Position numbers and translations under genes: made by a program. 50,222 nucleotides of DNA. Origin: a virus. Taxonomy: Duplodnaviria > Caudoviricetes. Under the pieces are notes generated by a model. That model searched no databases and was not told the DNA's origin. It saw only the letters and a program-made list of their open reading frames with translations. Below are positions 2,978 to 31,389 of the stretch, piece by piece (within the stretch, counting starts at the first letter, position 1; each line of letters begins with the position of its first letter). The stretch lies in the IMG/VR virus record IMGVR_UViG_3300031658_000011, positions 1-50,222 of that record. One strand, 5' to 3'.

Positions 2978-3384
2978 CCTTTTAGTCCTGCCGCGCGTCC
3001 CGTCTTAGACAGATGCTGGCCCGCGTCAACCCACCCAGTTGGGGTCGAGAAACCCCACCGCCGTTTGACGGGGCCAGTGATAAATACAGTCCAAACCGGG
3101 CTGTGATATACGTCAAGCCGATGAAGCAGCTTGGCTCTGCGATACACAGGCCAAAGCCACGGTATCCTGCGATCAAAGCACCGACCACTTTTAGCCCTTA
3201 ACTCCTCCCACAAGCAACCCCTAAGCAAGAAACTTACCGACCACCACGGATGGTCGTGTAGGATAGCGTCGTCTGAGTTGTGAAATCTGTGCAAGTAGAT
3301 GTTGCAATATTTATTCCGAGGGATGAGATGCCATCGCGTCATGTAATCATCTCGGATCACCACTTTCTTAAAAAACTTTCTCAT
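2974..3384 (-). CDS. Cupin-like phage protein (HDHPW family)
   Basis: YLHRF..SD...LHDHPW...S..L.G...E and a downstream HR, a cupin-type metal-binding pattern. Confidence 0.7.
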   Translation of the reverse strand: MRKFFKKVVIRDDYMTRWHLIPRNKYCNIYLHRFHNSDDAILHDHPWWSVSFLLRGCLWEELRAKSGRCFDRRIPWLWPVYRRAKLLHRLDVYHSPVWTVFITGPVKRRWGFSTPTGWVDAGQHLSKTGRAAGLKG

Positions 3385-3902
3385 CGTACCCCCAACAGTT
3401 TGCGGGCTGTAAATTCAAGTTGCTCTATTGATGAGTCGTTATGAATAACAGGCTCACCTTCTCGCGGGATAATCCCACCCTCGCTGGTGTGCGCAGCAAC
3501 AGTAGGCGCGGCCCGACGGCGAACGTGCCATAGCTCACCTTTCGCTCTGACCCACGCCGCCTCGTTCTCGAACCGGACGTCAGGAATAATTACAAACGTG
3601 TACCGCTCTGAGAATTTGCTTGCAAGGATCAGCCATGTGTCTTGGTGGACAATGTCACGCGCCCACTCAGTGCCAAGCGTTTGCAGCAACTCGCGTGGAC
3701 TCTTGCCGAGCGGCTCGAGAACCACTTCTTTTAAATGGCCGTTGAGATGATCCTCGCTGAGACCGAACCCCGCCGCCAACATTCTTTTAAGGGGGTCGGC
3801 AAAACCGTAGCGCGTGTATCCGTGGTCGCGCACAAGGTGAGCGGCGATCGTGTCCTTGCCCGTTCGCGCTGGCCCAGCCAGCCCTATAATTTTGACGGTC
3901 AC
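3381..3902 (-). CDS. Deoxynucleoside monophosphate kinase
   Basis: P-loop GPARTGKDT, FADPLK, PRELLQTLGTEW.R, DVRFENE, H.SE motifs. Confidence 0.92.
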   Translation of the reverse strand: MTVKIIGLAGPARTGKDTIAAHLVRDHGYTRYGFADPLKRMLAAGFGLSEDHLNGHLKEVVLEPLGKSPRELLQTLGTEWARDIVHQDTWLILASKFSERYTFVIIPDVRFENEAAWVRAKGELWHVRRRAAPTVAAHTSEGGIIPREGEPVIHNDSSIEQLEFTARKLLGVR

Positions 3903-6472
3903 TTGAACTCACCTCCAACCGTTGCGTCAAGCGCAACACGCACAGCCTCTACGTTGCCCGCGTAATTTTTTAACCCACTCTTGGTTGGGTTTATATACAC
4001 CGTAAAGACACGACCCCGCCACTTCAGCTTTCCCTGAGCGTTGGAGTTAAGCTTCTCGTAGCCAAAATTGCGAAGCAACATGGCGATTCGCGCTGGGCGA
4101 ACAGTAGTAGAGAACTCACTCCGAAGACGCTGTGTTATGGCGCTTGTAGTGACCACCCCACCCTCCCCGTTGCATCCTTCAAAAACATCTCCCAGCACTT
4201 CAACGAGTGCGGACTCGTCCTGCGGCAATGTATTGCCGCGCATGACGTGTTTAAATTCTGAGTCGGGCGCGTGGCCGAAGGGTTGAAAGGTGTGTGGAAT
4301 CTTGACGTTCTCTAAGTACCAGCGCAGTGCAGGGGCGTGATCGCTGTAGGCTTTAAACACACCGGAAAAAAGACCGGGGCAACGCTCGACCATTGCGGCA
4401 ACGTCGGACTCGTTTCGAGGTGTCGTGAACGTGACAAAATATCTGCGGTCTCCGCTCTCAAGCGGGATGGCATCCTCGTGATTAGTTAACATTAAGTAGT
4501 TTGTGTAATTTGGTACTTCAAACGGGTCGCGGCCTTTTCGATGTATCGGCACTCGGTTGTTAGTAATGTACGGCTTCATTGCATTTATGATCGAGTGCGC
4601 TGTGCCTCGCTCTCCGGGCAACCGAATTTCCTCGATGATTTTTAGCGAGGAACCCTCTGCCCACGAGGTGAAGCCAGTAGATAAAACGTGCGCGTCAACT
4701 GAGCTGGCATTCGGCGCTCCAAGGCAGGCCCGCATAATCTCAGACAGCATCGTTTTACCCGCGCCCTGCGGACCTTGGATAATAGGACACCAGTTGATGT
4801 GTACTCCTTCATTTTGAATGATCCAAGCCATCCAGTAGAAGAATATCTTGCGCTCCCTACGAGGGAGAAGCAGGGTCAGCAACCGCAAAAAGCTGCCAAC
4901 CGCGCGGTAGTCTGCGTCAAGCCAAGCCTCTGGAGGGCAGCCCTTTGGAACTGTCTCGGCGGACCACTCGTTTGCATATGTTATTCCTGTGCTGTCATCA
5001 GTAAAGACAGGGGGACGCCCCGGTGCATACATTCTTTGGCCTACTATTTTTATAGGCTTCTCGCAAAGCGACAACGCCCACACGTCGGCAGGGGCCATCA
5101 GCACACCGTCAGGGCCAGTCATCTTTCGGTTAAACTCAGCCTGAAAACCCCGTGAAGAACATCGGCGCTTGCTCTTCAGCTCCATGAACTCGTCGCCGTT
5201 CTGGAGATACACCCAACCAGCGGGCCAGCTATCCTCAAGGTCAGCGGCCACACCCTTATTGGGCGGCGTGTTCTTAGTTAACCTCTTAGGATTAAGCCAC
5301 TCTCGCACTTCGCCGATCGGGTGAGGCTTAACCGTCCTGCCAGTAGACGTCACCGCCATTTCCTGCAACCTCGCCTGAATGGCTTGCGCGAGCAAGTTCC
5401 GGTCGTAGTCTCCGAGGGCTATCTCCTCACAAATCTCTACGGTGTACTGGTCCCGCAGCTCACCCTCGTCTGCGCACCGCGCGATCTTCCGCGACCACAG
5501 TTTTCTGATCTCCTGCCGCGCGGCAGTGCGCTCTTTCTTTCCGAGGTTCTTGCACACCGACCGGATCGTGATGGGCGGTCGGTCCGAGAGCTGTGAGTTA
5601 AAAGACGTGTACTCTTTTTCGCAGATGCCTTCGACGTACTTGTCGCCCGAGCCGATGCTCCACTCATCCCAAATCTCTAAGCCCTCATCCTCACCCCCAT
5701 ACTGATGGTGCAGTCCCATGCCTACTCGCAGCCACTCCTCTCGGGAGCAGCTTGGATCAAGGCCAGCCAACTCTTCGGTGATCTGCTCGCGCGTAACGTC
5801 GTGCAAAACAGGGCGAAAGTTTTTCAGCGCACCGTCGAGATCGTCAACGGGCGCGGCCAATACGCTAGTTGCAGGCACTGTTAGGTAGGCAGTGAGGTCT
5901 AAGAAATCCGCGTCGATAACATGCACTTGGGGTGTCAAGTCGTCAAAAATCAGGGGTAGCATCTGGGCTTGGCAAGGGTTGTATGAGCAACTGTCGGCAG
6001 AGATGTCGTGCATACGCAAAAATTCAGGGGCTGCGATCTTGAACTGTTCGACCGTCAGCTCGACGTTGAGAGGCAGCGTGACCCGCCAACGCCTCGCCCC
6101 GCCAACGCTGTTTGCCGTCTGGAAATAGACGCAGGCCCACGACGCATATTTCTGCGCGAGGTCGTGGTGGGATTGATCGTTTTCGTCGAGGTCTAGTATT
6201 AACTGGTCAACACCAGTGACAAACTCTAGCTTGCGCCGCGTTCCTTGCGTCTTGCCCGCTATTATATAGTGGCACTTGACCTTGAGAATATCCCGCTGCT
6301 TTTTTGGCAGCTCATGCCACGAGGACAGGCTGCCGAGGGAGGGGTCCAGCTTACTGACGTGCGTTGCACCACCTCGGATAAAGTCTCCAAAGTCTGCGAT
6401 GGTGTTTAAGTTAATGCGCTTGAGGTTGTTCGCGTTAGATGCGCCCGTACCATACGTTACATTGATTGTCAT
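3899..6472 (-). CDS. Primase-helicase (primase/polymerase N-terminus, PriCT-2, SF3/DUF5906-type helicase)
   Basis: LDLD..., RWRVTLPL; PriCT-2 W..VGMGLH...W.EWS..GDKY; Walker A GPQGAGKT, Walker B IIEE, TNH.DAI....DRR. Confidence 0.9.
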   Translation of the reverse strand: MTINVTYGTGASNANNLKRINLNTIADFGDFIRGGATHVSKLDPSLGSLSSWHELPKKQRDILKVKCHYIIAGKTQGTRRKLEFVTGVDQLILDLDENDQSHHDLAQKYASWACVYFQTANSVGGARRWRVTLPLNVELTVEQFKIAAPEFLRMHDISADSCSYNPCQAQMLPLIFDDLTPQVHVIDADFLDLTAYLTVPATSVLAAPVDDLDGALKNFRPVLHDVTREQITEELAGLDPSCSREEWLRVGMGLHHQYGGEDEGLEIWDEWSIGSGDKYVEGICEKEYTSFNSQLSDRPPITIRSVCKNLGKKERTAARQEIRKLWSRKIARCADEGELRDQYTVEICEEIALGDYDRNLLAQAIQARLQEMAVTSTGRTVKPHPIGEVREWLNPKRLTKNTPPNKGVAADLEDSWPAGWVYLQNGDEFMELKSKRRCSSRGFQAEFNRKMTGPDGVLMAPADVWALSLCEKPIKIVGQRMYAPGRPPVFTDDSTGITYANEWSAETVPKGCPPEAWLDADYRAVGSFLRLLTLLLPRRERKIFFYWMAWIIQNEGVHINWCPIIQGPQGAGKTMLSEIMRACLGAPNASSVDAHVLSTGFTSWAEGSSLKIIEEIRLPGERGTAHSIINAMKPYITNNRVPIHRKGRDPFEVPNYTNYLMLTNHEDAIPLESGDRRYFVTFTTPRNESDVAAMVERCPGLFSGVFKAYSDHAPALRWYLENVKIPHTFQPFGHAPDSEFKHVMRGNTLPQDESALVEVLGDVFEGCNGEGGVVTTSAITQRLRSEFSTTVRPARIAMLLRNFGYEKLNSNAQGKLKWRGRVFTVYINPTKSGLKNYAGNVEAVRVALDATVGGEFK

Positions 6473-18453: not shown

Positions 18454-21400
18454 TTAAAACTGATAGGGTTGTGGCCCTTTCCCGTCTTGCTGCTGACCAC
18501 CTTCGTTCATCGCGGCTCGGATCGCCTTCGCCGTTACTGAGTTGCGGATATTGTCGCTGGTCACTTGCATAGTGGGGTTCTTTACGCTGAACCTTCTAAT
18601 GGCCGCTATCGTTTCTCCCGACAGTCCGCCCCCACCATTTATATCTTTCCTCGCCTGTTTCATTAGCGCGTCCCTGCGATCGCCAAGCTTTCTAAGCTTC
18701 GTCATTTCGATCCGGTTCCTAGTGTACTGCAACTGAAGTTCAGTAGGCGAAAAACCCAGAGTCTGCAACGCCAGCTCCCACCCGTTGAACTCATCAGCTT
18801 CTATAAGAGGTAGGTTTTCTGAGTTCGTTGCACCTTCTAGGTTGTATCTAACCGACTTACTGACGTCCCGAACAAACTTAGGCACTACTTTCTCAGCCCC
18901 CTTCCAGTATTCACCCTCTTTAAGCAACTCCTTCGCGTCCATAAACATCCCTAAGACGCCACCAAGAACCGGACCAGCCATTTGCAAACCGAAGTGGGCT
19001 AACTGCTCTCGGCCTTCCTTGCCGTTATCTTGTGGCTGAATAAAGAGACGTAGAATATCTGGCGCGACTCTCAAGCCAACGCTTCCCCCTACCAACACGT
19101 CAGTAGGACCGTCAACGACAATCTGCCCGAGAAGGCTGGCTAACTTTTCGTCCTTGACGGCGTCATTTATCATCAGGTAAACCCCTTCACGCAGCTCGCC
19201 CTCAAAGTCTTTCGGCTCATCCTCGTCCCCAAATAGGTCTTCAAGAAGGTTCCAAATTGTCTTGACTACCGAGTAAACAAAGACGCCTTGGATTCCAGAG
19301 AACAGCATGGATATAGCCACCGACGCGAGGGATCGATTCACCATCTCCCGCTTAACCACCGGATCGGTTTCATCCGATAAGTTAACCGCCACATAGGCGT
19401 CCCGCAAAACACGGAACGACATATTGAGCGCGTACTGTTTGTACTGCCCGATCACTTTTGCGGCTGGGAGTCTGAGAATCCGAGGTCGGCCCGCGTTGCT
19501 ATAGTCGAAGTGTACGTCGAGAGTCACGTTGTATGCGTAGTCCAAGGCCACGTTGTAGTTCTGACCTCCTGCTATTGCCATGCGGAAGGCAACCATCGCA
19601 GTGACTTCTCGGTTAAACACTTCCGCGTTATGGAAGCTTGCCGAAATTCTGTCCACTACGACTCGGCCCATCATTGATCGGTTCATCCCCTCGTCGCTGA
19701 TGCCCGCGAGGTCGTGCGCACGAGTCTTCTCGAAAAGGCTACGCCTGACCATCTCTTGATAAAACTCCAGCTCGACGCCTTTGAGGCTGTCGCTCCAATG
19801 TACCTTCATGTCGTTCTCGAGGAACACAGTCTTGTCTTTAGCTCTCACGGCTATGTTTGCCGCGATGACACCTGAAAACTCGTTTGTCGCCTTGGCGAAT
19901 GCGGCAGCGGTTTTAGAGTAGCCATACCTCGCCCCTATGACGGGTATCCCTACCATCGGAGTCTGGAAAGTGTTTATCAAAGCGGCGGCAGGAGAAACCC
20001 CCAACTGGTAAATAAACCCGAGGCTGGTCAAAGTTGAGGCCCACGGTTTGTTGGTCGGGTTCATCGCCCAGTCAACCCCGTCCTCTATCTCACGGAGAAG
20101 GCGACCAGCAAAAGCAGAGTCTTTCAGAGAATTGGACTCTTCTTTAGCTCGCACCAGCAAACCTCGAATCACATCACCGTGCCGCAACTTTGTAATGTGG
20201 TGAGCGTGGTGCAACGCGATAGAAGAATAGGCCCGCATGGCGTCCTCATCCCAGCCTTTTACCTTGCCCCTGTGAATGGACTGCTTGCGGATCGACATCT
20301 CTGGCAGAGTCTGTAGGTAGAGTTGCCACACCGCATCGGCCAGCTCAAATTGCTCCTTGCGACCTATGCCATCAGCGTTCTGGATAAGCCCCGTTACGGC
20401 GCTGGCGTACTCAGGATCAACTTCTTGGAACGAGCTTTGCTCTTCGTCTTTAACGCCCTTCTTAGAAATCCAAGTCGGATGTTTTTTCTCCATGTCGTTC
20501 TGATACTGAAGTGCTTGCTCGTTAGTCTCAAATATTCGGAACTCTTCGGTCACTTCTTTACCGTCCACCACCGATTTCAGTACCACAAAGTGTTCACCGA
20601 ATCGGGAGAGAGGAAAGTACGGCCCACGCACTTCGTTGCTTTCAAACGCTATCCGTAACTTGTCAGCCATAGCAGTACGGACTGTCTCGGACATCTCAGC
20701 TCGTTCGATGCGGTCGGCCAGCTCTTTGTGCATGGCACTGCGCTGCCGTCCGTATTCATCCCTGACTCTGTTGTACAGGTCTTTTGCTTCCTTAGATAAC
20801 GCAGAGTACCGAGAGTCGAGTCCCGCCTGCGCGTTCTTGCGCGTCACCTCGTCAGCTCTCTTCTGTTCTAGGGCTTTAAGAAGCCCGCTGTAACGCAGCC
20901 TCTGATCGGCAGTCCCAGCGGAGCGCATCTTAGTAGAGAGCCGCGTCTTCTCTTTGAAGTATTCTTTCTCGGTGAGTATCGACTTGTATGGCGCAGACGG
21001 GTCGTAGCCCACCAGCGTCGTGTCGTGCATTAAAGTGTGTAGTTTGCTCGCCATCTTCCTGTTCTTGCGCGCCCAGCGATGCCATATATTAAGCACCTCG
21101 CCAGCGTCAGACAGTATCTGGTTACGGTCTGCGTCCATCTGCTCCGCCTGTCGGATCACTTTAGCCGCAGTGGGCATTTCCTCGGGGATTATTTCTGCGA
21201 GCGCACGTCGAGGCAGAAGCGACAACAGGGATGGCCGTTGAGAGATCATCCGCTGGAATCGGTTTTGCGTGTTTGCTGTAGTGGGTAAACGCCCGCCTCT
21301 GCCCTCGGAGTCAATAGACCCTAAGAGATCGGCCAAGCCTTCTAGCCCTGACTGCTCCGTGTCGTTGCGACGGGAGCCGAGTATGTCAGAGTCTAGCTGT

Positions 21401-24400
21401 CCTGCTCTCCCTCGGGCTGAAGCTCGACGGGTAGGTTTGACATCTCCTCGGGATCGGTTAGAAGCTCCTGTATCTCTTCCTCCGACCTGTCTGGGTACGC
21501 CATCGTCATATACATCGCGGCTGTAAGTGCCATTTGCCTTCCGATCATTACGTCCAGAATCGGATCGGGATGCCCATCCGGGTACATCTCCTTTAGTTTT
21601 TGCGAGTCCATAAGCTTCTTTCCTCACTTTAGCGAGGGTCATTTTACCCTCGGCAAATTGTTTCCACAAGGCGTTTATTTTTAGGAGGTTGACTGATTCC
21701 GTGTCCTTAAACTTCTTGGGATAAATGACGCGAATCTCCTCCCATGTAATGCTTTGCAGCTCACGCGGTAGCAGCCCTAACTCGGCAGCCGCTTCTCGAT
21801 AGGCGTCGGCTACGATGCCGTATATTCCGCCTATGCCATTTGATTTTGAACTCCCTGCGCCTGCACGTTCTACCCCTTCTGGTATGCCACGCAAGCCTTT
21901 TACGGGAGTACCGCCAAAGACGTGAGCGACCTCATAACTCTTTGCCGACAAGGGCTTGAACACCGCCGCCGCCATTGCGTGGGTGTCAATAGTCACCTCA
22001 CCCAGATTACTGTTGGGTGCGATAATGTTGTTGTAAAAGTTTCTGACCTTGTGCGCGCCGCCCAGACTCATCGACACCGATTCCAGTGACCCGTCTTGCA
22101 ACACCCTCATCGCCTTGGCGATCTCAGTGAACGAACCCCACGCAACAGACGAGGGTGTAACACCGTCGTCGTTCATCGCAAGCCCAATGATTTCGCCTGT
22201 TGGCTTCATCATGCGGTACTGGCGAGAGTGCTTCGCTTCGTCGTACATGCGTACCCAGATCGAGACAGCAAGGTTGCCATCACGTTCGGAGACGAGAGAC
22301 CTCACGTCAGACAGCTTGGCGTTTTTAATCAAGCCCCATATCTCACGGTATTCTCGTGTCTGGGCTACCTTATCGGATTCACCCTTCCGTGGGTTTTTGC
22401 TGACTATGATCAGCTTGCCTTTGTCGTCCCGCATCACGACGCGGTTAAACGCTTTGTCCATGTCCTTGTCTGCGGTCGCGTCTTGGCGGTAGGTATGGAT
22501 GTCCATGATCCGCTCGGCCAGAGACATATTCATAAACCAGTCTTTTTGTGGTGACAAGTTAGCAATAACAGCAGCCACCTGTCTCGACTCTAACCCATAC
22601 CGAGCAGACCAGATGTCTACGTTCTTGCGCGCGCCGTCGTACCACTTGCGGGCAGTCTCTCTAAGGTTGGGGTCCATCTGATTGTGCAGCCAGATCAGGT
22701 TCTTCACCATGAACTGCTTGAACTCGTTGATGGTCTCTTCCGCAGTCAGGTCTGACCGAGAAGGGGTAAAGAAGTCGTAGCCCTCAATAGTTTTCTTTTG
22801 TGTTTTAGCGACTTTTTCAACGGACAGTATACGGTCAACGCCTATCGAATATTCTTCGGGCGCACCTGTAATATAGTAGGGTACTTTGTTTTTCATCCCT
22901 GACGGCAACGACGTCTGGACGCGATCCTCACCACCCTTAACCTTGTTAGGTCGCACAGCCTGATAAGGTCTGCCTGTCTTACCAATGGGTGCTTTGCGCG
23001 ACGCCAGTATGTCGCTACTGTCTGAGTTGTCAGGGTCAAAGGCTGCATAAGCAGATCGGATGTTCGACTCTCTGCCGGGGAAAGTTACGACGTGTACGGT
23101 GTCGCTGTCCACCCCGTCCATACTGCCGCCATAGCGTCGGGCCGTTCCGAACTTAGTATTTACCGTGTAGTCAAGAACGCCATCGAAACCAAGATTCTTT
23201 AACACCTGCGAGGATATTTCACCCGGAGAAATCATCTCACCTGAATCGTTCTCCAATGCCCCCAGTGACCGAATCGCGGAGTCTATTTCTGTTACGACGA
23301 GGGCGTTATCGGTGATGTCATCCTGTAGCGCCTCCATTACCTCGCCAATAGAATCCGGGCTGATGTACAGGTCTGTGTCCCTGAGAGCATCTTGTATCTT
23401 TGCGTACAGAGATTCGTCCGAGTCAGCCGACAGCTCATCGGCGTACTCAACCAAGGCGTCGTCAAAGGCGTCCTCGTCTTCGTAGTCGTCCCGGTTCAAT
23501 TCATCTCGGGCATCCTCGGTAAAGTCTTTACCATAGATAAAACTTTGGCTGCGCCCGTCGGGGTTGCGGCCGGGGCCACTATCGACCACTGCGTAGTTCC
23601 CAGTCTTTATTTTCAGCGGGTACACGACGCCTTTCTTCGCTGGGCCTAACAGTCTGTCGGAAGCGATTTTCCAATGAGCCGCGTCCATATCCCCAGAGTA
23701 TTCCTCCAAGGGGATGCTGGCCTGCTCAAGAATTTGATCCCTTTCAAAGTCATTATAATCCATGACCTGTGCTATGTTCTCGGCTTCTAGCTCTATTCGA
23801 GCCGTCAAGTCAGGGCCAATTCCTGCGTAGTTTTCATTAACATCCTCGATGCTAGTGCTGGCGTAGGAAGCCTTGCCCCAATCTCCGTCCGGGCGGGCGC
23901 GATCACCGTCAAACGCCACGATGTCAAACGTGCTGCCAGAGAAAACTTCCATGTCGAAGCCTTGCTCCTCGGCTCGGGCGTCTCTCGCTTCTTTTGTCAT
24001 GCCCTCTTTGCCAAACTTCGCGGTGGCCGCAGTCCACTTCTCAGTGCCGCGACTCTCTTGGCCTAACGCTGTACGCGACGCCAGTATGTCGCTACTGTCA
24101 AAACTATTACCGTCAAACTCCGCATTAACAGATCGAATGTTAGCTGAATCAAAGACGGCTATGTTTGTGTATTTCTTACTGCGGGCGTCCCAGTCCGTTT
24201 CAAAATCCCAGTAGGAGTCAAACCCAGCGGCTTTAATGTCTTCCGCGCCACCCTCTAAAGTGCTGTAGTCTCTCGACGCAGCGGGGGTAAGGCCGAGTAT
24301 CTTTCTATGGGAGGGCTTGTTTATATCAAAAGTGTTTTCAACTTTTATGTAGACTGGGTAAATGGTCGGAGCGTCGTCAGGCGAAGTTGCCCACCCCCCA

Positions 24401-27231
24401 AACACCTCTGCAAAACTCTCGGCAGTCTTGCTGTCTGTTGTAAGGTGAGCCGCTACGTTTGGTGTATTACCCCTAAACCCTTTCTTGTTTATCGTCGTTG
24501 TTTTTGTCCCGTGGTAGTAAACGGTGTCCGTGTCGAAACCCATCTCTGTGGCACGGGCTGTGCGGACGGCGCGCGAGCCTAGTATGTCGCTACCGTCTGA
24601 GCTGTCAGCATTAGCAGCTTTATCTTTTCTAGCTTGGTTGCGCTCTCTGGCTCCCTTGTTGTAACTTTCTATGCCTAGAGTGGTTGAAAAGTCGGCAGCG
24701 TCCAACTGCGATTTGTTGAGGACATCAGTAATCCCTAGAATGGCCGCGTCAAGCCAAGTTGGGGTATTGCCACTCTTTGAGCCGAACAAACTTATTTTGA
24801 CCCAGTCTTTAAAACGCTGTAACAAAGTCTTTCCGTTGTAGTCGATGTTGTACAGCTCAAGCTGAAAAGCTGGGTCAGTAGTCGCGCGGATAAAAAATTC
24901 ATCTATACCGCCGTCGGCTCCCGCAATTTGCATGGGGACGCTTAGATTCTCTATGCCCCCCGCCTCGGCTGCTAGTTTCGCAACTTCTTTACGGAACTCA
25001 CGGTGCAAGTTTCGGAACTGGGCAATAGCTTCCTCCGCTTGAGGTCTAGTCAGTCCTGTGCGGTCGTATGTCGAACCCTTCGCAGCAGCAAATAACGTCG
25101 AGTACCGAGCATTGATTACTAGGTGCATCGCCTCGTGCAGCAACGTATCAACGTCATTACCCTGCTCATTTCCTTCATAGATTGTAAGGAGTCCTTTCTG
25201 TAGGGTATTACCATTCGCAAACGACGGGAATCTGTATGAGCCGCCTTTAATTTCGTTGTAGCCCCCTAACTCAACATCGTAGCTAGAGGGGTCCGGTAAC
25301 AACGACATGATTTCGTCTATGAGAAACTTAACTTCTTGCGGCATGCTTTCTTTCGCAGACTCAAGGGCCGCAACAAAATCGTTATCTCGAATAGCCTGTA
25401 AGGTCTTTTCACTTAGGGGTTGGCGGATAGCGTCAGAGATGGGCCTATACTTGCCTCTCTCCAGTGTAGGCTCGGGCCGAGACAGCTCCTCGAGGGTACG
25501 ACGTGTGACAGTACCATCCCCTACGACGGCTGCGGTTACAGCCAGCGACATAATGTTCCGCATAAATCTACGGCGGGTTAAGCCGCGCTCGTCTTCGTCT
25601 ATCTCGGCGTCCGATCTTACCCCGTCTAATTCCTGTTGGAATTTAGCGTCGGAGGCGGCTTGATCTGCCAAATACTTTTTCTCTAGTTCTTTTAAATCTT
25701 CAACCCTTCTCAGTCTCTCTCCGTATTCTTTCGTCCCAAACTTAGGAGTTTTTTCCTCTGCTTCTTGCAACATTTCTCGTACACTTTGCAGATACGTCCT
25801 TGTACTTTTTTCCTCTTTTTTCTGCCTCTCTAAGATTTCATTTCGTTTGTCTTCGACGGTACGAGAGGGGGCTTTTTCTTTCTGTCTCCGTTTCTTATTA
25901 GCTTTCTCGTCAGCTTTAGCTTTCTTATCGGCCTGTCGCTTGTCGTCTTTGGCTTTCTTATCGGCCTGTCGCTCATCAGCTTTGGCTTTTTTCTCGGCCT
26001 GTCGCTCGGCGTCTCTTGCCTCTTTTGCCGCAGCAGCTTCTTGGGCCTTTTTCCCTTTAGCTCTTAGGTCTGCTTCTTTGGCTGTTCTTTTGGCATCACG
26101 CTCTTCTACTTCCTTATCTTCGGCCGCTTGACGGTCTTCTACTTCCTTATCTTCAGCCGCTTGACGGGCTTCTACTTCCTTATCTTCAGCCGCCTGACGG
26201 TCTTCTGCTCTCGTATCTTCGGCGGCTTGTCGTGTTTCAGCCATCGCGCTGTTAGCGGTTTCACGGATAGCCAGCTCGGCAAGCGACGCAAACTCTCTCA
26301 TTGACAAGTTATCAGCAGTGACTTTTATTCGTAACAGCTTACGAAGAGTTTGCTGCACAGCCAGCCGTGCGTCTCCAGCCCACTTTGCGATAGACCCTTT
26401 CTCTGCCTTAGACTCGACGATCGCTTGGATAGCATACGCCATCCACTCGCTTTCTTGTTTAGCTAAGTCCCCGGTGCTATCACCCGAATTAACAAACAAC
26501 TCATAAGCGTCTTGTAAAACCTTTTTCTCTCTGGGGTTTCCAAACTGGCGCAGTAAGTTAAGGCGTCGGTATAGAGCAGACCGCTGATCTCCCATCAGCA
26601 TATCAAAACGGGCGCTGCCAGACTCTTCGGCGTAGCCTTCTGCCGCGTGGAGCATTTCGTGGTAGCCCACTGCCACCGCGCCTATGTCAGCCTCTACCCT
26701 GTCTGAGAATATAACGGCCTGTCCTGTTGACTTCTTATACGCACCGCGCATGCCGTTCTTTTCATCAAACGCCATCGTCCAGCCGTCCCCTAGCGCATCT
26801 CGCTGAGTGCTGTGTACGACACGGAGCTTTCCTGAGTCTAGCGACTCTGACATTGCGGTGTTTTTGCGCAGGACTGCAAGCACCCGAGCGTTCTTTTCTT
26901 CGGCTTCGGCCTCTGTAAAGTTGCTACCCAACGAATCAAGGGAAGGAGCCTCGGAGTCAGTCTCAGGATCAGACTCTCTGCTGCCCAGTACGTCCCCTGC
27001 TGCTGATGCCTTGGCAACGGCAAGGGCCATCACATTAGCTTGTTTTAATCTAAGAGCAGCCAGCGTTTCTTCGACGGCTATTATGTTCGCCTCGCCTAAA
27101 GGCATGGACAGCGTACCTGTGTCTGTCTTGCCCGCAGAGTTACGGATACTTTTCACTTTCTTGCGGAGGGCTGCCTTCTCTTCCTTGGATATTGTATCGC
27201 CAGCTTCTTTGAGGCAGTTGGACAAAGTCAT
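18454..27231 (-). CDS. Giant polyvalent internal-virion/ejection protein (HExxH x2, ART-like x2, glycosylase-like, PLxRFG domain)
   Basis: 2925-aa ORF near the end of the late operon; HEMLH, HEAMH, YYHGT...IYPVY...GFD...NIRS, YFPLSRFG. Confidence 0.85.
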   Translation of the reverse strand: MTLSNCLKEAGDTISKEEKAALRKKVKSIRNSAGKTDTGTLSMPLGEANIIAVEETLAALRLKQANVMALAVAKASAAGDVLGSRESDPETDSEAPSLDSLGSNFTEAEAEEKNARVLAVLRKNTAMSESLDSGKLRVVHSTQRDALGDGWTMAFDEKNGMRGAYKKSTGQAVIFSDRVEADIGAVAVGYHEMLHAAEGYAEESGSARFDMLMGDQRSALYRRLNLLRQFGNPREKKVLQDAYELFVNSGDSTGDLAKQESEWMAYAIQAIVESKAEKGSIAKWAGDARLAVQQTLRKLLRIKVTADNLSMREFASLAELAIRETANSAMAETRQAAEDTRAEDRQAAEDKEVEARQAAEDKEVEDRQAAEDKEVEERDAKRTAKEADLRAKGKKAQEAAAAKEARDAERQAEKKAKADERQADKKAKDDKRQADKKAKADEKANKKRRQKEKAPSRTVEDKRNEILERQKKEEKSTRTYLQSVREMLQEAEEKTPKFGTKEYGERLRRVEDLKELEKKYLADQAASDAKFQQELDGVRSDAEIDEDERGLTRRRFMRNIMSLAVTAAVVGDGTVTRRTLEELSRPEPTLERGKYRPISDAIRQPLSEKTLQAIRDNDFVAALESAKESMPQEVKFLIDEIMSLLPDPSSYDVELGGYNEIKGGSYRFPSFANGNTLQKGLLTIYEGNEQGNDVDTLLHEAMHLVINARYSTLFAAAKGSTYDRTGLTRPQAEEAIAQFRNLHREFRKEVAKLAAEAGGIENLSVPMQIAGADGGIDEFFIRATTDPAFQLELYNIDYNGKTLLQRFKDWVKISLFGSKSGNTPTWLDAAILGITDVLNKSQLDAADFSTTLGIESYNKGARERNQARKDKAANADSSDGSDILGSRAVRTARATEMGFDTDTVYYHGTKTTTINKKGFRGNTPNVAAHLTTDSKTAESFAEVFGGWATSPDDAPTIYPVYIKVENTFDINKPSHRKILGLTPAASRDYSTLEGGAEDIKAAGFDSYWDFETDWDARSKKYTNIAVFDSANIRSVNAEFDGNSFDSSDILASRTALGQESRGTEKWTAATAKFGKEGMTKEARDARAEEQGFDMEVFSGSTFDIVAFDGDRARPDGDWGKASYASTSIEDVNENYAGIGPDLTARIELEAENIAQVMDYNDFERDQILEQASIPLEEYSGDMDAAHWKIASDRLLGPAKKGVVYPLKIKTGNYAVVDSGPGRNPDGRSQSFIYGKDFTEDARDELNRDDYEDEDAFDDALVEYADELSADSDESLYAKIQDALRDTDLYISPDSIGEVMEALQDDITDNALVVTEIDSAIRSLGALENDSGEMISPGEISSQVLKNLGFDGVLDYTVNTKFGTARRYGGSMDGVDSDTVHVVTFPGRESNIRSAYAAFDPDNSDSSDILASRKAPIGKTGRPYQAVRPNKVKGGEDRVQTSLPSGMKNKVPYYITGAPEEYSIGVDRILSVEKVAKTQKKTIEGYDFFTPSRSDLTAEETINEFKQFMVKNLIWLHNQMDPNLRETARKWYDGARKNVDIWSARYGLESRQVAAVIANLSPQKDWFMNMSLAERIMDIHTYRQDATADKDMDKAFNRVVMRDDKGKLIIVSKNPRKGESDKVAQTREYREIWGLIKNAKLSDVRSLVSERDGNLAVSIWVRMYDEAKHSRQYRMMKPTGEIIGLAMNDDGVTPSSVAWGSFTEIAKAMRVLQDGSLESVSMSLGGAHKVRNFYNNIIAPNSNLGEVTIDTHAMAAAVFKPLSAKSYEVAHVFGGTPVKGLRGIPEGVERAGAGSSKSNGIGGIYGIVADAYREAAAELGLLPRELQSITWEEIRVIYPKKFKDTESVNLLKINALWKQFAEGKMTLAKVRKEAYGLAKTKGDVPGWASRSDSGRNDRKANGTYSRDVYDDGVPRQVGGRDTGASNRSRGDVKPTRRASARGRAGQLDSDILGSRRNDTEQSGLEGLADLLGSIDSEGRGGRLPTTANTQNRFQRMISQRPSLLSLLPRRALAEIIPEEMPTAAKVIRQAEQMDADRNQILSDAGEVLNIWHRWARKNRKMASKLHTLMHDTTLVGYDPSAPYKSILTEKEYFKEKTRLSTKMRSAGTADQRLRYSGLLKALEQKRADEVTRKNAQAGLDSRYSALSKEAKDLYNRVRDEYGRQRSAMHKELADRIERAEMSETVRTAMADKLRIAFESNEVRGPYFPLSRFGEHFVVLKSVVDGKEVTEEFRIFETNEQALQYQNDMEKKHPTWISKKGVKDEEQSSFQEVDPEYASAVTGLIQNADGIGRKEQFELADAVWQLYLQTLPEMSIRKQSIHRGKVKGWDEDAMRAYSSIALHHAHHITKLRHGDVIRGLLVRAKEESNSLKDSAFAGRLLREIEDGVDWAMNPTNKPWASTLTSLGFIYQLGVSPAAALINTFQTPMVGIPVIGARYGYSKTAAAFAKATNEFSGVIAANIAVRAKDKTVFLENDMKVHWSDSLKGVELEFYQEMVRRSLFEKTRAHDLAGISDEGMNRSMMGRVVVDRISASFHNAEVFNREVTAMVAFRMAIAGGQNYNVALDYAYNVTLDVHFDYSNAGRPRILRLPAAKVIGQYKQYALNMSFRVLRDAYVAVNLSDETDPVVKREMVNRSLASVAISMLFSGIQGVFVYSVVKTIWNLLEDLFGDEDEPKDFEGELREGVYLMINDAVKDEKLASLLGQIVVDGPTDVLVGGSVGLRVAPDILRLFIQPQDNGKEGREQLAHFGLQMAGPVLGGVLGMFMDAKELLKEGEYWKGAEKVVPKFVRDVSKSVRYNLEGATNSENLPLIEADEFNGWELALQTLGFSPTELQLQYTRNRIEMTKLRKLGDRRDALMKQARKDINGGGGLSGETIAAIRRFSVKNPTMQVTSDNIRNSVTAKAIRAAMNEGGQQQDGKGPQPYQF
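25900..26232 (-). repeat. Intragenic tandem repeats encoding charged helices (RQAAEDKEVED about 36 bp; RQADKKAKAD about 33 bp)
   Basis: Repeated TCTACTTCCTTATCTTC and TCGGCCTGTCGCT units. Confidence 0.8.
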
Positions 27232-27706: not shown

Positions 27707-27958
27707 CTAGCTTTGAACGTCTACGTTAAGCTCGGTTTCAAGCCAAACCTTGGCTCCGCATGGCAGGGGTTTGTCTGGGCTATATACCAGTGTGGCTACG
27801 ACTTCACCGTCAAAATCCCGAATCGTAGCCTTGTTGCCTTTCCGGTTTCTGCGGTAATCCTTAACAGTCAGGACTGGCACATCCGCGCCTTTGGCGTTTG
27901 CTTTAATGTTATGTTGGTTTACATGGAGTCTGGTTATCACTTGCTCGCCTTGCAGCAT
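27707..27958 (-). CDS. Conserved-looking phage hypothetical protein
   Basis: HVNQH.I..N...P..TVK...Y.P.KPL.CGAKVW.ET; SD GAGG. Confidence 0.75.
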   Translation of the reverse strand: MLQGEQVITRLHVNQHNIKANAKGADVPVLTVKDYRRNRKGNKATIRDFDGEVVATLVYSPDKPLPCGAKVWLETELNVDVQS

Positions 27959-30900
27959 TTGAGTATGGCCTCAAACGCGCTAATCTTGTCCGTCGCTTGT
28001 TGGTACGCCACGCCTGCGTTTTCTGTAACCGTCCCTATTTCGCCGTCCTCTGTGGGGGCGTCCATTTCGATCTCTATTTTACCAAGTTCTGACTGCGTCA
28101 GCGATGTCTTACTGCTAACAGGTGATGGGGCAGATTGATCTGGAGAGCCTTCGGCTGCGGTGGGAGTGGACTCGGTAAGAGGCAGAGAGCCTTGCGTGTT
28201 CATCCGGTTCTTGTAATTTACGAGGCTCTTAACAGCCGCGTCGATCCCCTCCCTTGTATTGCCAAGGCCAAGCAATTCAACGGCGCTGCCCGTTGGAGCG
28301 CCGCCCCACTTAAAGGTATTCTTATCCACAGAGATAGTTTCGGTACTGCCGTCTGCTAACTCTACGGTGTAGACCCCGTTGCTCTCTGATACAACAGGCT
28401 CACTACTAGTAACTGGTGAGGAAGAAGAAGCCGATCCCGAAGACTCTGAAATATCGCTGCTGTTAACTGGTGAAGAAGAAGAGTCTCCGAACATCTCTGA
28501 CTGGACTTGCGTCGATGTGTTAGCGGCAGGGCTAACGAAACGGGGAGACAGGTAGAATTTTGTGCCGTCCGTAGTAACTTCCCAGTTGCCGCCGTGCTGC
28601 TTCTGCTTTTGGACCAGTGAGAGTTTTGCGCCTTTCTCGGTCTTGAACTCTGTCGTGCTGATTGCGTTGGCTTTCGGATCAATAATCCGCGCAGCCCAGT
28701 CCTCATCGATTGCTTGTCCCTGATCTCGCAGGCTCTCCAGCTCGGCTTCCAAAGCCGTGGCGTCTCTCGGCTGGACGACAAATCGACCTTCTTCGTTTTT
28801 AACAACCTCCCACCGCCCTTCAGTCTGCGCGTCTGCGGCTGCCTGCGCGTCGGCCTTGGTCTTAAACTTAGGCTTCAGGGTCGAGGCAAAGGCAGCCTCG
28901 GCGCGGAGCTTGGCTAGGTCAAACCCTTGGACCTTTGCCTCATACTCAGTAAGCGCCTCTCCCTCGGTGATAGTCTCTTGGAGCTGCTGCATGTAGGCCG
29001 CCAGCTCGACGGGGTTCAGCTTCTTTAACTCGACTTGTGACTCCGCGCTAACTAAGGGCGCAGACTCAGAACGCTCGCGCGGCATGAAAATACCGCCGTC
29101 CTCTTCTACGGCTTCACCTTGATCTGGGCGTGTATTAGCTGCGTAACGCGCTTTAAGCCCACTTACCGCTGTTGTCAGCGCAAGACCTTCATTATCGCGG
29201 CCTAGTGTTTGCTGCGCAGGAAAATCTGTAACTCCTCCGACGTACTCCTGACCCTGACCCTGATGTAAAAAAGGTGCGGCGAGGTCACCCATTGTCTCAA
29301 TAAAATCCTGCTCGTGGGGTAGCAGTTCCCGCCCTTCTGCGCCGCGCATTACGCCCTCGTAGACTTCGGCGTTGGTAAGCACACTTGGGTCTACGGGTGC
29401 TTGGTCTTGGCCGACCTGATCAACACTACTTATTTCGGCGATCTCTGACTGGGGATCGTCGGACAGAGTAGTGTCAGACTCAGGGATAGCCACCGTGTTT
29501 TGGCCGCCGCCTGCTAGTTTATACTTGAGAGCAAGGTTGCCAAGCGCGGCTTCCATCGCTAGGCCGTCGCCTTCATCTACTAGCCCGTAAGTCTCAGGGT
29601 AGTTCATACCCCCCTCAACTTCCGCCCCCTCGTCTTGAAACCTAAACGCGGCGTCGGGGTTAAAGTCTTCCGTCTGTTGCTCTTCGTAGGCGAGCATTTT
29701 CGCTTGGTCTTCGGCGGATATTTTTAATCCTGCTTGGGCCACTCTCTCAAACGTAGCGTATTCGACGGCGGCTGTAACTCCCTCGATGAAAGCCTTCTCC
29801 TCGGGCCGAAAGTCCCGACCTTCGGCTTCGGCTTGAGCCACTATTGTGTCAAGGACTTGCCCGTTAGTCAGGTTGCCAGACGGATTTATAAAAGCTTCTG
29901 TTTGCGCCTCCGCGTTAGAATTTTCAAAAATGTCTTGTCTTAGGTCTGGGTAAACAGACTCTACAAACACCTGTTCTTCAAAAGTAGTAGCTCCCCCCTT
30001 ACTAGCCCGATCCAATATATCTCTGGCCCTGCGAATTTCTGGCTGCCTGCCAGAGAGTCTAGTGCCTGCCGCTTCTACCGCTTTAAACGCTCCGGTCTGA
30101 GAGACGCCGCCAATAAAGCCTGCTCCGACTGCTTCGGCTGTGCCTTCTAATAATTCTTGTGACTCATCCGCATACAGCTTAACTCCCATGTTGCCGCCGA
30201 GGGCGTTGATGCCCTCTTGGATAATTTCCTCCGCGCCTTCTCTTAGAAGGGTCATGCCTGTCGCTTTAATGCCGGGGCCGCCTGACGATGCTTTACCCCG
30301 TAAAATACCGGACTCAAACTTCGAGGTTAGCTTTCCTGCAAAACCTGCAATCGGGGCCGTTATAGCAAACGTCGTCCGACTAGCAGATAGGGCGACCATC
30401 TCGCGCGCTATGTCGGGGTTGACTTTGTCCTCGATCAAACCACGGTACTTTTCCGAGCCTTCCATGAGCTGCTCGTGGGTCATGCCGATGACTTTCTGGC
30501 GTGTACCAACGGCGGCGTCCGCGCCTTCCAACGCGCCCATGCCTGCCGCCATTGTAGTGCCAGCATATTTCGCCTGTAGCTTTGCAAGCTCTCCGCCCAC
30601 AAGCTGCCGCCCTTTACCTACGGCCGCGCCTATGACCGCGCCGCCTCTGGACAGTAATGCTCCCGGCGCTAAATACGCTGCGCTTTGTGCTGACTGGTCA
30701 CCAAGAAGCGCGGGGTTGGCGGCAATATCTGCCACTGTATATCCCGCGCGCAACGCCCAGTTCATGCCTTGGGCCTCTCTTTCGGCAGAGGCCGATTGCT
30801 GGATAGCAGTTTCTTGTTTTAGGCTGTCGGATTTATAGTCCTGTAAGAAGTCGGAAAACTCACTGGCTTTATCAGATATATACCCGCCGACTTCACCTGT

Positions 30901-31389
30901 GGTCGGGATGTCCAAACCAGTCACTTTGTTTATGCCCGCTGTCGCAAGGTTAGCAATACCCAAACCGGGGAGTATGTCGTCCCCTAGACGGGCCAGTTCA
31001 GCAGTCCCGCCCACAACGCCCGTAGCACCTTGGGCCAAGGCAATCCCTAAGTCCGGTGCAACTTCGCCCCAACTGCGGTCCTCGGCCTCCCCCATAAATA
31101 CGGCGCGCGCTTCGGCGAGTTTCTCATCGTCTAGCTCACCAAACCCTTTTTTCTTATTGACGAAAGCGAACAGTTGCCCTTTCGTACCCGCGTCCCTAAA
31201 CGTAGAATCAATCCGGTAAACATCTTCTGCGGTTGGCGTTGCATTACCTTTCAGGAAACTACTGCGGAAAGTTTCTGGGTCGTAGTCAGGGTAGTAGGTC
31301 TTCTGAACATACGTCGCCACTTGATTGTCCGTAAATTCTGAAGAACCCCAACTAGGGTTGATCGCGGCAAGTGTTTGTCTGTTGATCAT
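27937..31389 (-). CDS. Internal virion/ejection protein
   Basis: 1150 aa; Gly/Ala-rich helical region with EGAEE..QE motif; directly upstream of the giant-protein block. Confidence 0.75.
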   Translation of the reverse strand: MINRQTLAAINPSWGSSEFTDNQVATYVQKTYYPDYDPETFRSSFLKGNATPTAEDVYRIDSTFRDAGTKGQLFAFVNKKKGFGELDDEKLAEARAVFMGEAEDRSWGEVAPDLGIALAQGATGVVGGTAELARLGDDILPGLGIANLATAGINKVTGLDIPTTGEVGGYISDKASEFSDFLQDYKSDSLKQETAIQQSASAEREAQGMNWALRAGYTVADIAANPALLGDQSAQSAAYLAPGALLSRGGAVIGAAVGKGRQLVGGELAKLQAKYAGTTMAAGMGALEGADAAVGTRQKVIGMTHEQLMEGSEKYRGLIEDKVNPDIAREMVALSASRTTFAITAPIAGFAGKLTSKFESGILRGKASSGGPGIKATGMTLLREGAEEIIQEGINALGGNMGVKLYADESQELLEGTAEAVGAGFIGGVSQTGAFKAVEAAGTRLSGRQPEIRRARDILDRASKGGATTFEEQVFVESVYPDLRQDIFENSNAEAQTEAFINPSGNLTNGQVLDTIVAQAEAEGRDFRPEEKAFIEGVTAAVEYATFERVAQAGLKISAEDQAKMLAYEEQQTEDFNPDAAFRFQDEGAEVEGGMNYPETYGLVDEGDGLAMEAALGNLALKYKLAGGGQNTVAIPESDTTLSDDPQSEIAEISSVDQVGQDQAPVDPSVLTNAEVYEGVMRGAEGRELLPHEQDFIETMGDLAAPFLHQGQGQEYVGGVTDFPAQQTLGRDNEGLALTTAVSGLKARYAANTRPDQGEAVEEDGGIFMPRERSESAPLVSAESQVELKKLNPVELAAYMQQLQETITEGEALTEYEAKVQGFDLAKLRAEAAFASTLKPKFKTKADAQAAADAQTEGRWEVVKNEEGRFVVQPRDATALEAELESLRDQGQAIDEDWAARIIDPKANAISTTEFKTEKGAKLSLVQKQKQHGGNWEVTTDGTKFYLSPRFVSPAANTSTQVQSEMFGDSSSSPVNSSDISESSGSASSSSPVTSSEPVVSESNGVYTVELADGSTETISVDKNTFKWGGAPTGSAVELLGLGNTREGIDAAVKSLVNYKNRMNTQGSLPLTESTPTAAEGSPDQSAPSPVSSKTSLTQSELGKIEIEMDAPTEDGEIGTVTENAGVAYQQATDKISAFEAILKCCKASK

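Follow-up and report, generated by a model that had tools for sequence, protein, structure and literature searches.

A six-residue linker, D-[IV]-L-[GA]-S-R, was found in five copies in a giant protein encoded by virus record IMGVR_UViG_3300031658_000011, a sequence of 50,222 bases (estimated completeness 93%) which is here called the window in its full length. Runs containing the phage were marine metagenomes and the source is a marine podovirus-like phage. The linker is far beyond chance and is a real module-junction motif; as judged from sequence comparisons, relatives replaced or inserted whole modules and joined them inside the motif or within two codons of it. The overall reading, to which a probability of about 0.6 was assigned, is that of a module-end motif on a polyvalent protein, conserved as a peptide, serving as a joint for module exchange and endowed with a putative role as a peptide. 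The giant open reading frame (ORF), its five linkers (L1 to L5) and its modules were as follows, positions being those of the window, followed by amino acids (aa) of the protein.

18454-27231, minus strand: giant ORF P0001 (2925 aa), a PLxRFG-type polyvalent protein, probably in the virion (ORF scan and profile matches)
26995-27231, minus strand: N-terminal leader, aa 1-79, helical, kept in the giant of related locus L001 and in P0073 (predicted local distance difference test score, pLDDT, of 65-83 over aa 1-60 of the model)
26977-26994, minus strand: linker L1, DVLGSR, aa 80-85 (motif scan)
26242-26976, minus strand: HExxH region 1, aa 86-330, matched by no family model (alignment)
25552-26241, minus strand: charged region of low complexity, aa 331-560, containing two tandem-repeat arrays of a 33-nucleotide (nt) unit (sequence)
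24589-25551, minus strand: HExxH region 2, aa 561-881, matched by no family model (alignment)
24571-24588, minus strand: linker L2, DILGSR, aa 882-887 (motif scan)
24091-24570, minus strand: ART-1 module, aa 888-1047, ART-PolyVal PF18760 (Pfam, 32.6 bits versus a cut-off of 31.2)
24073-24090, minus strand: linker L3, DILASR, aa 1048-1053, within the 26-nt repeat 24074-24099 (motif scan)
23014-24072, minus strand: ART-2 module, aa 1054-1406, divergent, ART-like at the N-terminal helix and C-terminal tail only (comparison with ART-1)
22996-23013, minus strand: linker L4, DILASR, aa 1407-1412, within the 26-nt repeat 22997-23022 (motif scan)
21388-22995, minus strand: DUF7178 module, aa 1413-1948 (Pfam)
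21370-21387, minus strand: linker L5, DILGSR, aa 1949-1954 (motif scan)
18457-21369, minus strand: conserved core, aa 1955-2925, with LPD39 and the PLxRFG domain NF032893 (Pfam, NCBIfam)

The five copies had been announced by an original prediction made from the DNA letters and their ORFs. An in-frame motif scan recovered all of them on the minus strand, in the frame of the giant, at residues 80, 882, 1048, 1407 and 1949, within a few bases of the predicted positions; 0.0016 copies were expected from the composition of the protein. Scanning the window in six frames with the strict and with loosened six-residue patterns gave no matches beyond these five, and the shorter pattern [IV]L[GA]SR gave one further match, in a 32-aa frame. 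With a reduced-alphabet hexamer, three of 360 shuffles of 72 giant proteins reached at least four spaced copies, the giant of the window having five. The linkers marked module borders as predicted, and no Pfam match crossed any of the five. All were situated in Ser/Asp/Gly-rich stretches, a spacer which is probably disordered. AlphaFold models of aa 1-335 and aa 552-1060 (mean pLDDT 53.5 and 51.4) placed L1, L2 and L3 in segments of pLDDT below 50, both models being too poor for linker placement or fold search. A sixth, degenerate copy (DLLGSI, window 21313-21330, aa 1968-1973) was observed 14 residues past L5 and was kept in P0002 and P0003.

Module exchange at the linkers

The linker had been proposed to act as a recombination handle for gain or loss of cassettes. 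Where whole modules were gained, lost or replaced, the breakpoints between homologues did fall on the linker, namely in L001, P0004-P0010, the X18 contig and P0075. Window and L001 had a single DNA block in common, corresponding to the ART-2 module (gene nt 3141-4245, aa 1047-1415; ~80.6% identity), of which the identity started at GAC ATA of L3 and stopped two codons past L4. DNA similarity was not detectable on either side of this block, the flanking modules being unrelated, and the alternative modules of L001 matched no Pfam family. A DUF7178 block was common to P0004-P0010 at 47-74% identity, these proteins being otherwise different; in all seven it started at aa 1389-1417 and ended at aa 1910-1968, with related peptides at its borders (e.g. 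DDIMFSR, TRFARR and VAFSRR).

The X18 contig matched first 23594-24091 and next 24074-25943, the two matches being separated by 435 letters without a match. This corresponds to an in-frame insertion of 453 nt with the 18-nt linker sequence 24074-24091 on both sides, as computed from the match table of this single metagenome contig; the breaks of the same contig at L4 and its uncovered stretches were not counted as evidence. In P0075, an L3-type linker was preceded by a module of a third kind. The minimal relative P0073 (1727 aa) harbored LPD37 (97-352) between GVLASR (74) and KLLSSK (386). A deletion joining 22997 to 24074, suggested in the original prediction as a trace of cassette loss, was not encountered: no joining contig was present in the four runs examined out of the 21 listed, in a search of contigs only, where rare variants could not show.

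In the mechanism proposed here, variable N-terminal payload modules would be strung on the conserved C-terminal PLxRFG core, each module ending in [S/D]-D-[IV]-L-[GA]-S-R within a Ser/Asp/Gly-rich spacer. The motif would have originated in ART-PolyVal-type modules, as their C-terminal tail, and would then have spread to other junctions, so that the hexamer became a common module-end tag and a joint at which payloads are exchanged in frame. Any recombination that joins two tags in frame, aided by 15-26 nt of shared sequence, would yield a viable chimera, so that payloads could be shuffled. Joins on the linker may result from crossover guided by the sequence, or else viable chimeras may have been selected.

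Conservation of the linker as peptide and as DNA

Among the 71 giants found with the whole protein as query, the strict motif was restricted to P0001-P0003, with five copies each. P0002 and P0003 were 85% and 84% identical to the giant and kept 5/5 linkers. L001 encoded a giant of 3147 aa in the same gene neighbourhood, with a core 52% identical to that of the window, and displayed SILGSK, AILGSR, DILASR, DLLASR and DILGSR at the equivalent junctions, the spacer residues flanking the linkers being not alignable. P0004, a parallel lineage with its own junction peptide, harbored five copies of [ND]-[IV]-[LMR]-F-S-R (aa 1141, 1596, 1768, 3116 and 3298), one of them directly behind its ART domain. 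P0006 also carried a junction peptide of its own, D[IV]D[TA]PSGIR, in two copies (aa 1417 and 1945) flanking DUF7178.

All 73 matching records of the 'phages' database were less than 60% identical and none covered 80% of the query; the 40 matches listed concerned the core or the DUF7178 part only. Further loci were not found in the genome-contig search, the viral-contig search returned only the contig of L001 again, and the metagenome-contig search gave two loci, L004 (the DNA of P0002) and the contig of L001 once more (as L005).

The copies at 22997-23022 (L4) and 24074-24099 (L3) had been described as identical over 26 bp, and this exact match was confirmed. Shuffling produced two matches in none of 100 trials, and identical codons in L3 and L4 had a chance probability of ~3e-5 given the residues and the codon usage of the gene. 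In L001 and L004, L4 read CTA CTA; in the window it read ATA CTG, matching L3 of the window. The two copies have been homogenised at the DNA level, in a pattern that looks like gene conversion, which fits exchange between linkers. Use of ATA for Ile in four out of four DIL copies was rejected as a signal, this codon accounting for 38% of the Ile codons of the gene.

Only L3 and L4 of the window resembled each other as DNA. Codons varied among the copies of the window, Ser being encoded by AGC, TCG or TCC and Arg by AGA, CGC or CGT, and L004 differed synonymously from the window in its linker codons, like L001. The predicted partial conservation as DNA consequently applied to L3 and L4 within the window but not to the comparison with L001, from which 10 of the 30 linker codons differed synonymously and five by conservative replacements. 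Since codons drifted while residues stayed, selection acts on the linker peptide. A purely DNA-level element, of which the repeats would be recombination sites and the peptide a by-product, would explain the 26-nt identity of L3 and L4 but is extremely improbable, because the other copies and the orthologous ones differ synonymously (including AGC versus TCG for Ser) with their residues kept, and a conserved nucleotide core across lineages was not seen. To our knowledge, no recombinase target matches the linker repeats.

Origin and possible role of the hexamer

The hexamer was kept exactly behind modules other than ART as well, which suggests that it probably also has a job at the peptide level. 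A processing role is plausible from the sequence features of the protein. HExxH region 1 displayed H191, E192, H195 and E262 as invariant residues among six aligned sequences, and HExxH region 2 displayed H699, E700, H703 and E778 among eleven; for these conserved residues the two regions can reasonably be labelled candidate peptidases. The PLxRFG core contained two hydrophobic 19-residue segments, aa 2401-2419 (20030-20086) and aa 2638-2656 (19319-19375), with Kyte-Doolittle values of 1.43 and 1.85. Their composition is such that they could insert into a membrane, and they could hold the core in the envelope. With two conserved HExxH...E regions, two hydrophobic core segments and an earlier proposal on this protein class by Iyer et al. 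(see below), processing is the most economical proposal for the peptide. A protease would recognise the motif and, once the protein has been packaged or injected, detach the modules from the membrane-inserting core, with the two HExxH...E regions as candidate enzymes; this is put forward tentatively, at somewhat less than even odds. When HExxH region 2 and the L2 peptide were predicted as a complex, the score was 0.00 versus a mark of 0.32, obtained without controls and counting neither way.

Several observations weighed against the overall reading and brought forward a rival explanation, in which the hexamer is merely the tail of ART-PolyVal-type modules, copied by recombination, kept as a good spacer and left uncut. 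More than 20 proteins had ART-like modules terminated by a tail ...NIRSxNAxFDP...SS-x-[IL]-L-A-[SAG], which followed the ...NIRS... strand at a distance of 16-18 residues. By this comparison the ART family concerned usually ends in the motif at its C-terminus; ART-1 and ART-2 have this tail in common. In the small, stand-alone proteins P0076 (468 aa) and P0077 (785 aa) the tail lay 10-22 residues before the C-terminus, and it was present twice in each of P0083-P0087, five proteins devoid of any HExxH, so that a protease in the same chain is no general partner of the motif. Conversely, P0005, P0006 and P0058, which are relatives of HExxH region 2, lacked the motif. Neither HExxH region matched a peptidase family in Pfam at E values up to 10 or had a solved peptidase relative. 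The poor AlphaFold models showed no docking of a linker and gave no sign of processing. Repeated linkers were also uncommon, since five of the 72 giants reached four copies, and these belonged to two real lineages plus P0030, which was chance-like.

The mosaic pattern called for similar caution. Window and L004 diverged most inside ART-1 (~aa 912-965) and ART-2 (~aa 1190-1370), away from the linkers, and the linkers with their neighbouring sequence were 89-97% identical as DNA; not every mosaic border was therefore located at a linker. Linker joins could reflect selection for foldable chimeras alone, or, under the inherited-tail explanation, fall on the hexamer because only joins between folded domains survive. 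Between lineages the linker was kept as peptide and not as DNA, which confines a DNA handle to exchange within one genome. The proposed recombination handle was thus retained in part: whole-module joins on the linker and the homogenised L3 and L4 support it, but conservation between lineages resided in the peptide and the patches inside the ART modules broke elsewhere. These hypervariable patches extended over ~24337-24498 (ART-1) and ~23122-23664 (ART-2), where DNA identity to L004 dropped to 39-53% between flanks near 90% or above. The ART-2 patch was also replaced in the X18 contig, and the patches may be target-facing surfaces under diversifying selection.

A mere inherited tail was nevertheless considered unlikely. 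The exact hexamer also followed the N-terminal leader, HExxH region 2 and the DUF7178 module, and it was kept in phages with cores 52% identical, where the flanking spacer could not be aligned; a mere spacer would not be constrained to six residues.

The motif might alternatively be a docking or threading tag, which would bind the capsid interior, the portal, the ejection conduit or a chaperone for packing or threading and would not be cut. In stand-alone relatives the motif was kept close to the C-terminus, and a hydrophobic stretch rich in Gly and Ala often came after it (P0077, P0091 and P0097); gp40 of Roseobacter phage CRP-738, encoded near the portal gene, displayed a similar tail behind DUF7178. 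This explanation is improbable, as it has no known partner, a fused protein would need no more than a single targeting signal, and the leader (aa 1-95) was found by search in no shorter protein. As to gp40 itself (L006, 7663-10170; 835 aa), DUF7178 formed its C-terminal half, behind a part looking by eye like a methyltransferase. Its gene was just downstream of the portal gene, with a 71-aa ORF between, and its C-terminus was the Gly/Ala-rich hydrophobic tail DIGIATAGLIGAAGL, resembling the tails behind stand-alone ART modules.

Within the overall reading of an exchange joint with a putative peptide role, a more ambitious version would consist of lineage-specific separator codes, in which the peptide ends each payload, is read by a protease of the same protein that sets the payloads free in the host, and doubles as joint for exchange between phages, DILGSR and the NILFSR of P0004 being dialects. 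This version is rather doubtful; if true, it would represent a natural plug-in scaffold for effector delivery.

Protein class, gene setting and known systems

The C-terminal part of the giant scored 476.1 bits with NCBIfam NF032893 (PLxRFG; cut-off 100), aa 2203-2914 corresponding to positions 1-674 of the 681 of the model, and PLSRFG was read at aa 2207-2212. PHROG 10089 matched the same core (E 1e-112). Pfam identified ART-PolyVal (904-1037), DUF7178 (best stretch 1506-1600) and LPD39 (1992-2207). Together with the two HExxH regions these domains were combined in a single polypeptide, encoded among phage late and packaging genes on the same strand, as is characteristic of polyvalent proteins. 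An identity with P1 DarB was rejected, the adenine methylase and the SF2 helicase being both absent from the giant according to Pfam; the PHROG name reflects the shared core only.

Some of the predicted domain labels were not sustained. ART-1 exceeded the gathering cut-off of PF18760 by a narrow margin, with the module alone as query, and scored 24.4 bits within the whole protein. ART-2 remained below that cut-off and had no Pfam match at E values up to 10; no family model confirmed its label, and it was alike to ART-1 only in the first helix and the tail. The term glycosylase-like, applied to DUF7178, found no support in Pfam or PDB searches (0 matches as PDB sequence query). The label of peptidase was not backed by a family model or a solved relative, and the HExxH with its downstream Glu was invariant. 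As PDB sequence queries, HExxH region 2 gave 0 matches and HExxH region 1 five weak, irrelevant ones (E 0.015 or worse). In a protein atlas, region 1 fell into unnamed clusters and into one of which 18% of the members carried LPD23; its relatives among 1.84 billion representatives were four proteins, a number that did not suffice for testing co-occurrence.

Between the HExxH regions, tandem repeats with a unit of 33 nt (11 residues) formed two arrays, at 25906-26014 (3.3 copies) and 26098-26229 (4 copies). P0002 lacked 11 residues of the second array.

Polyvalent proteins of phages and conjugative elements were described by Iyer, Burroughs, Anand, de Souza and Aravind in 2017, who proposed processing by zincin-like peptidases (PMC5512222). 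The giant resembled them in combining many unrelated enzyme-like domains in one polypeptide, among which ART of the polyvalent type, LPD39 and HExxH regions, and in its late-gene setting. The word 'linker' is absent from the main text of that paper, and neither a repeated junction peptide nor exchange with joins on a motif was found there, supplements aside. Polyvalent proteins are known as a class; in the literature examined, no mention was encountered of a junction peptide repeated within one of them or of exchange points mapped to such a peptide, with the same reservation for supplements.

The podovirus giants designated PLxRFG or 'DarB-like antirestriction' proteins (JC1 gp69 and the PHROG 10089 group) have the same C-terminal core and the same gene location at the end of the structural module, but repeated linkers were encountered in only two lineages among the 72 giants. 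Mass spectrometry of purified virions detected gp69 of podovirus JC1, a DarB-like giant of 4515 aa, through 51 unique peptides (PMC9144972), and gp47 of phi24B provides a second basis for the packing of such giants into particles. By analogy with these two proteins, the giant of the window is probably carried in the phage particle and probably delivered into the host.

Short junction peptides are known from other systems. The motifs of polymorphic toxins (VENN of CdiA and the DPxGL region of Rhs) separate the constant part used for delivery from the variable payloads and are thought to act both as recombination joint and as processing point. The likeness is a functional analogy only, since proteins and delivery route are unrelated and the giant has several serial payloads, each with its own copy. 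In prohead-protease systems (T4 gp21 and phiKZ-like phages), a recurring short consensus in internal head proteins directs cutting inside the head. The giant has in common with them a short consensus that recurs in a protein, here a probably packaged one, but the window ORFs scanned included no prohead protease and the motif was present in no other protein of the window. This comparison also draws on PMC10052503.

Polyvalent virion proteins are regarded as the weapons that a phage fires first into the cell, and the assembly, exchange and release of their payloads are at stake here. A six-residue module-end tag with natural exchange points mapped on it would supply a rule by which module borders can be read in giants lacking annotation, would offer a concrete and cheap test of the proposal that zincin domains process polyvalent proteins, and may provide a natural design by which payloads could be swapped on delivery scaffolds of phage-host systems in the laboratory.

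Upstream of the giant, the minus-strand genes encoded terminase, portal, major head protein, an SU10-type adaptor, tail fibre, an 1150-aa protein and lysozyme. A tyrosine integrase came after the 2925-aa ORF, which was thereby located between lysozyme and integrase at the end of the structural module. The 1150-aa protein (27937-31389, minus strand) had no Pfam or NCBIfam match and matched a PHROG of N4-type virion RNA polymerases only N-terminally (profile positions 124-517 of 3406); its counterpart in L001 comprised 1146 aa and was encoded at the equivalent location.

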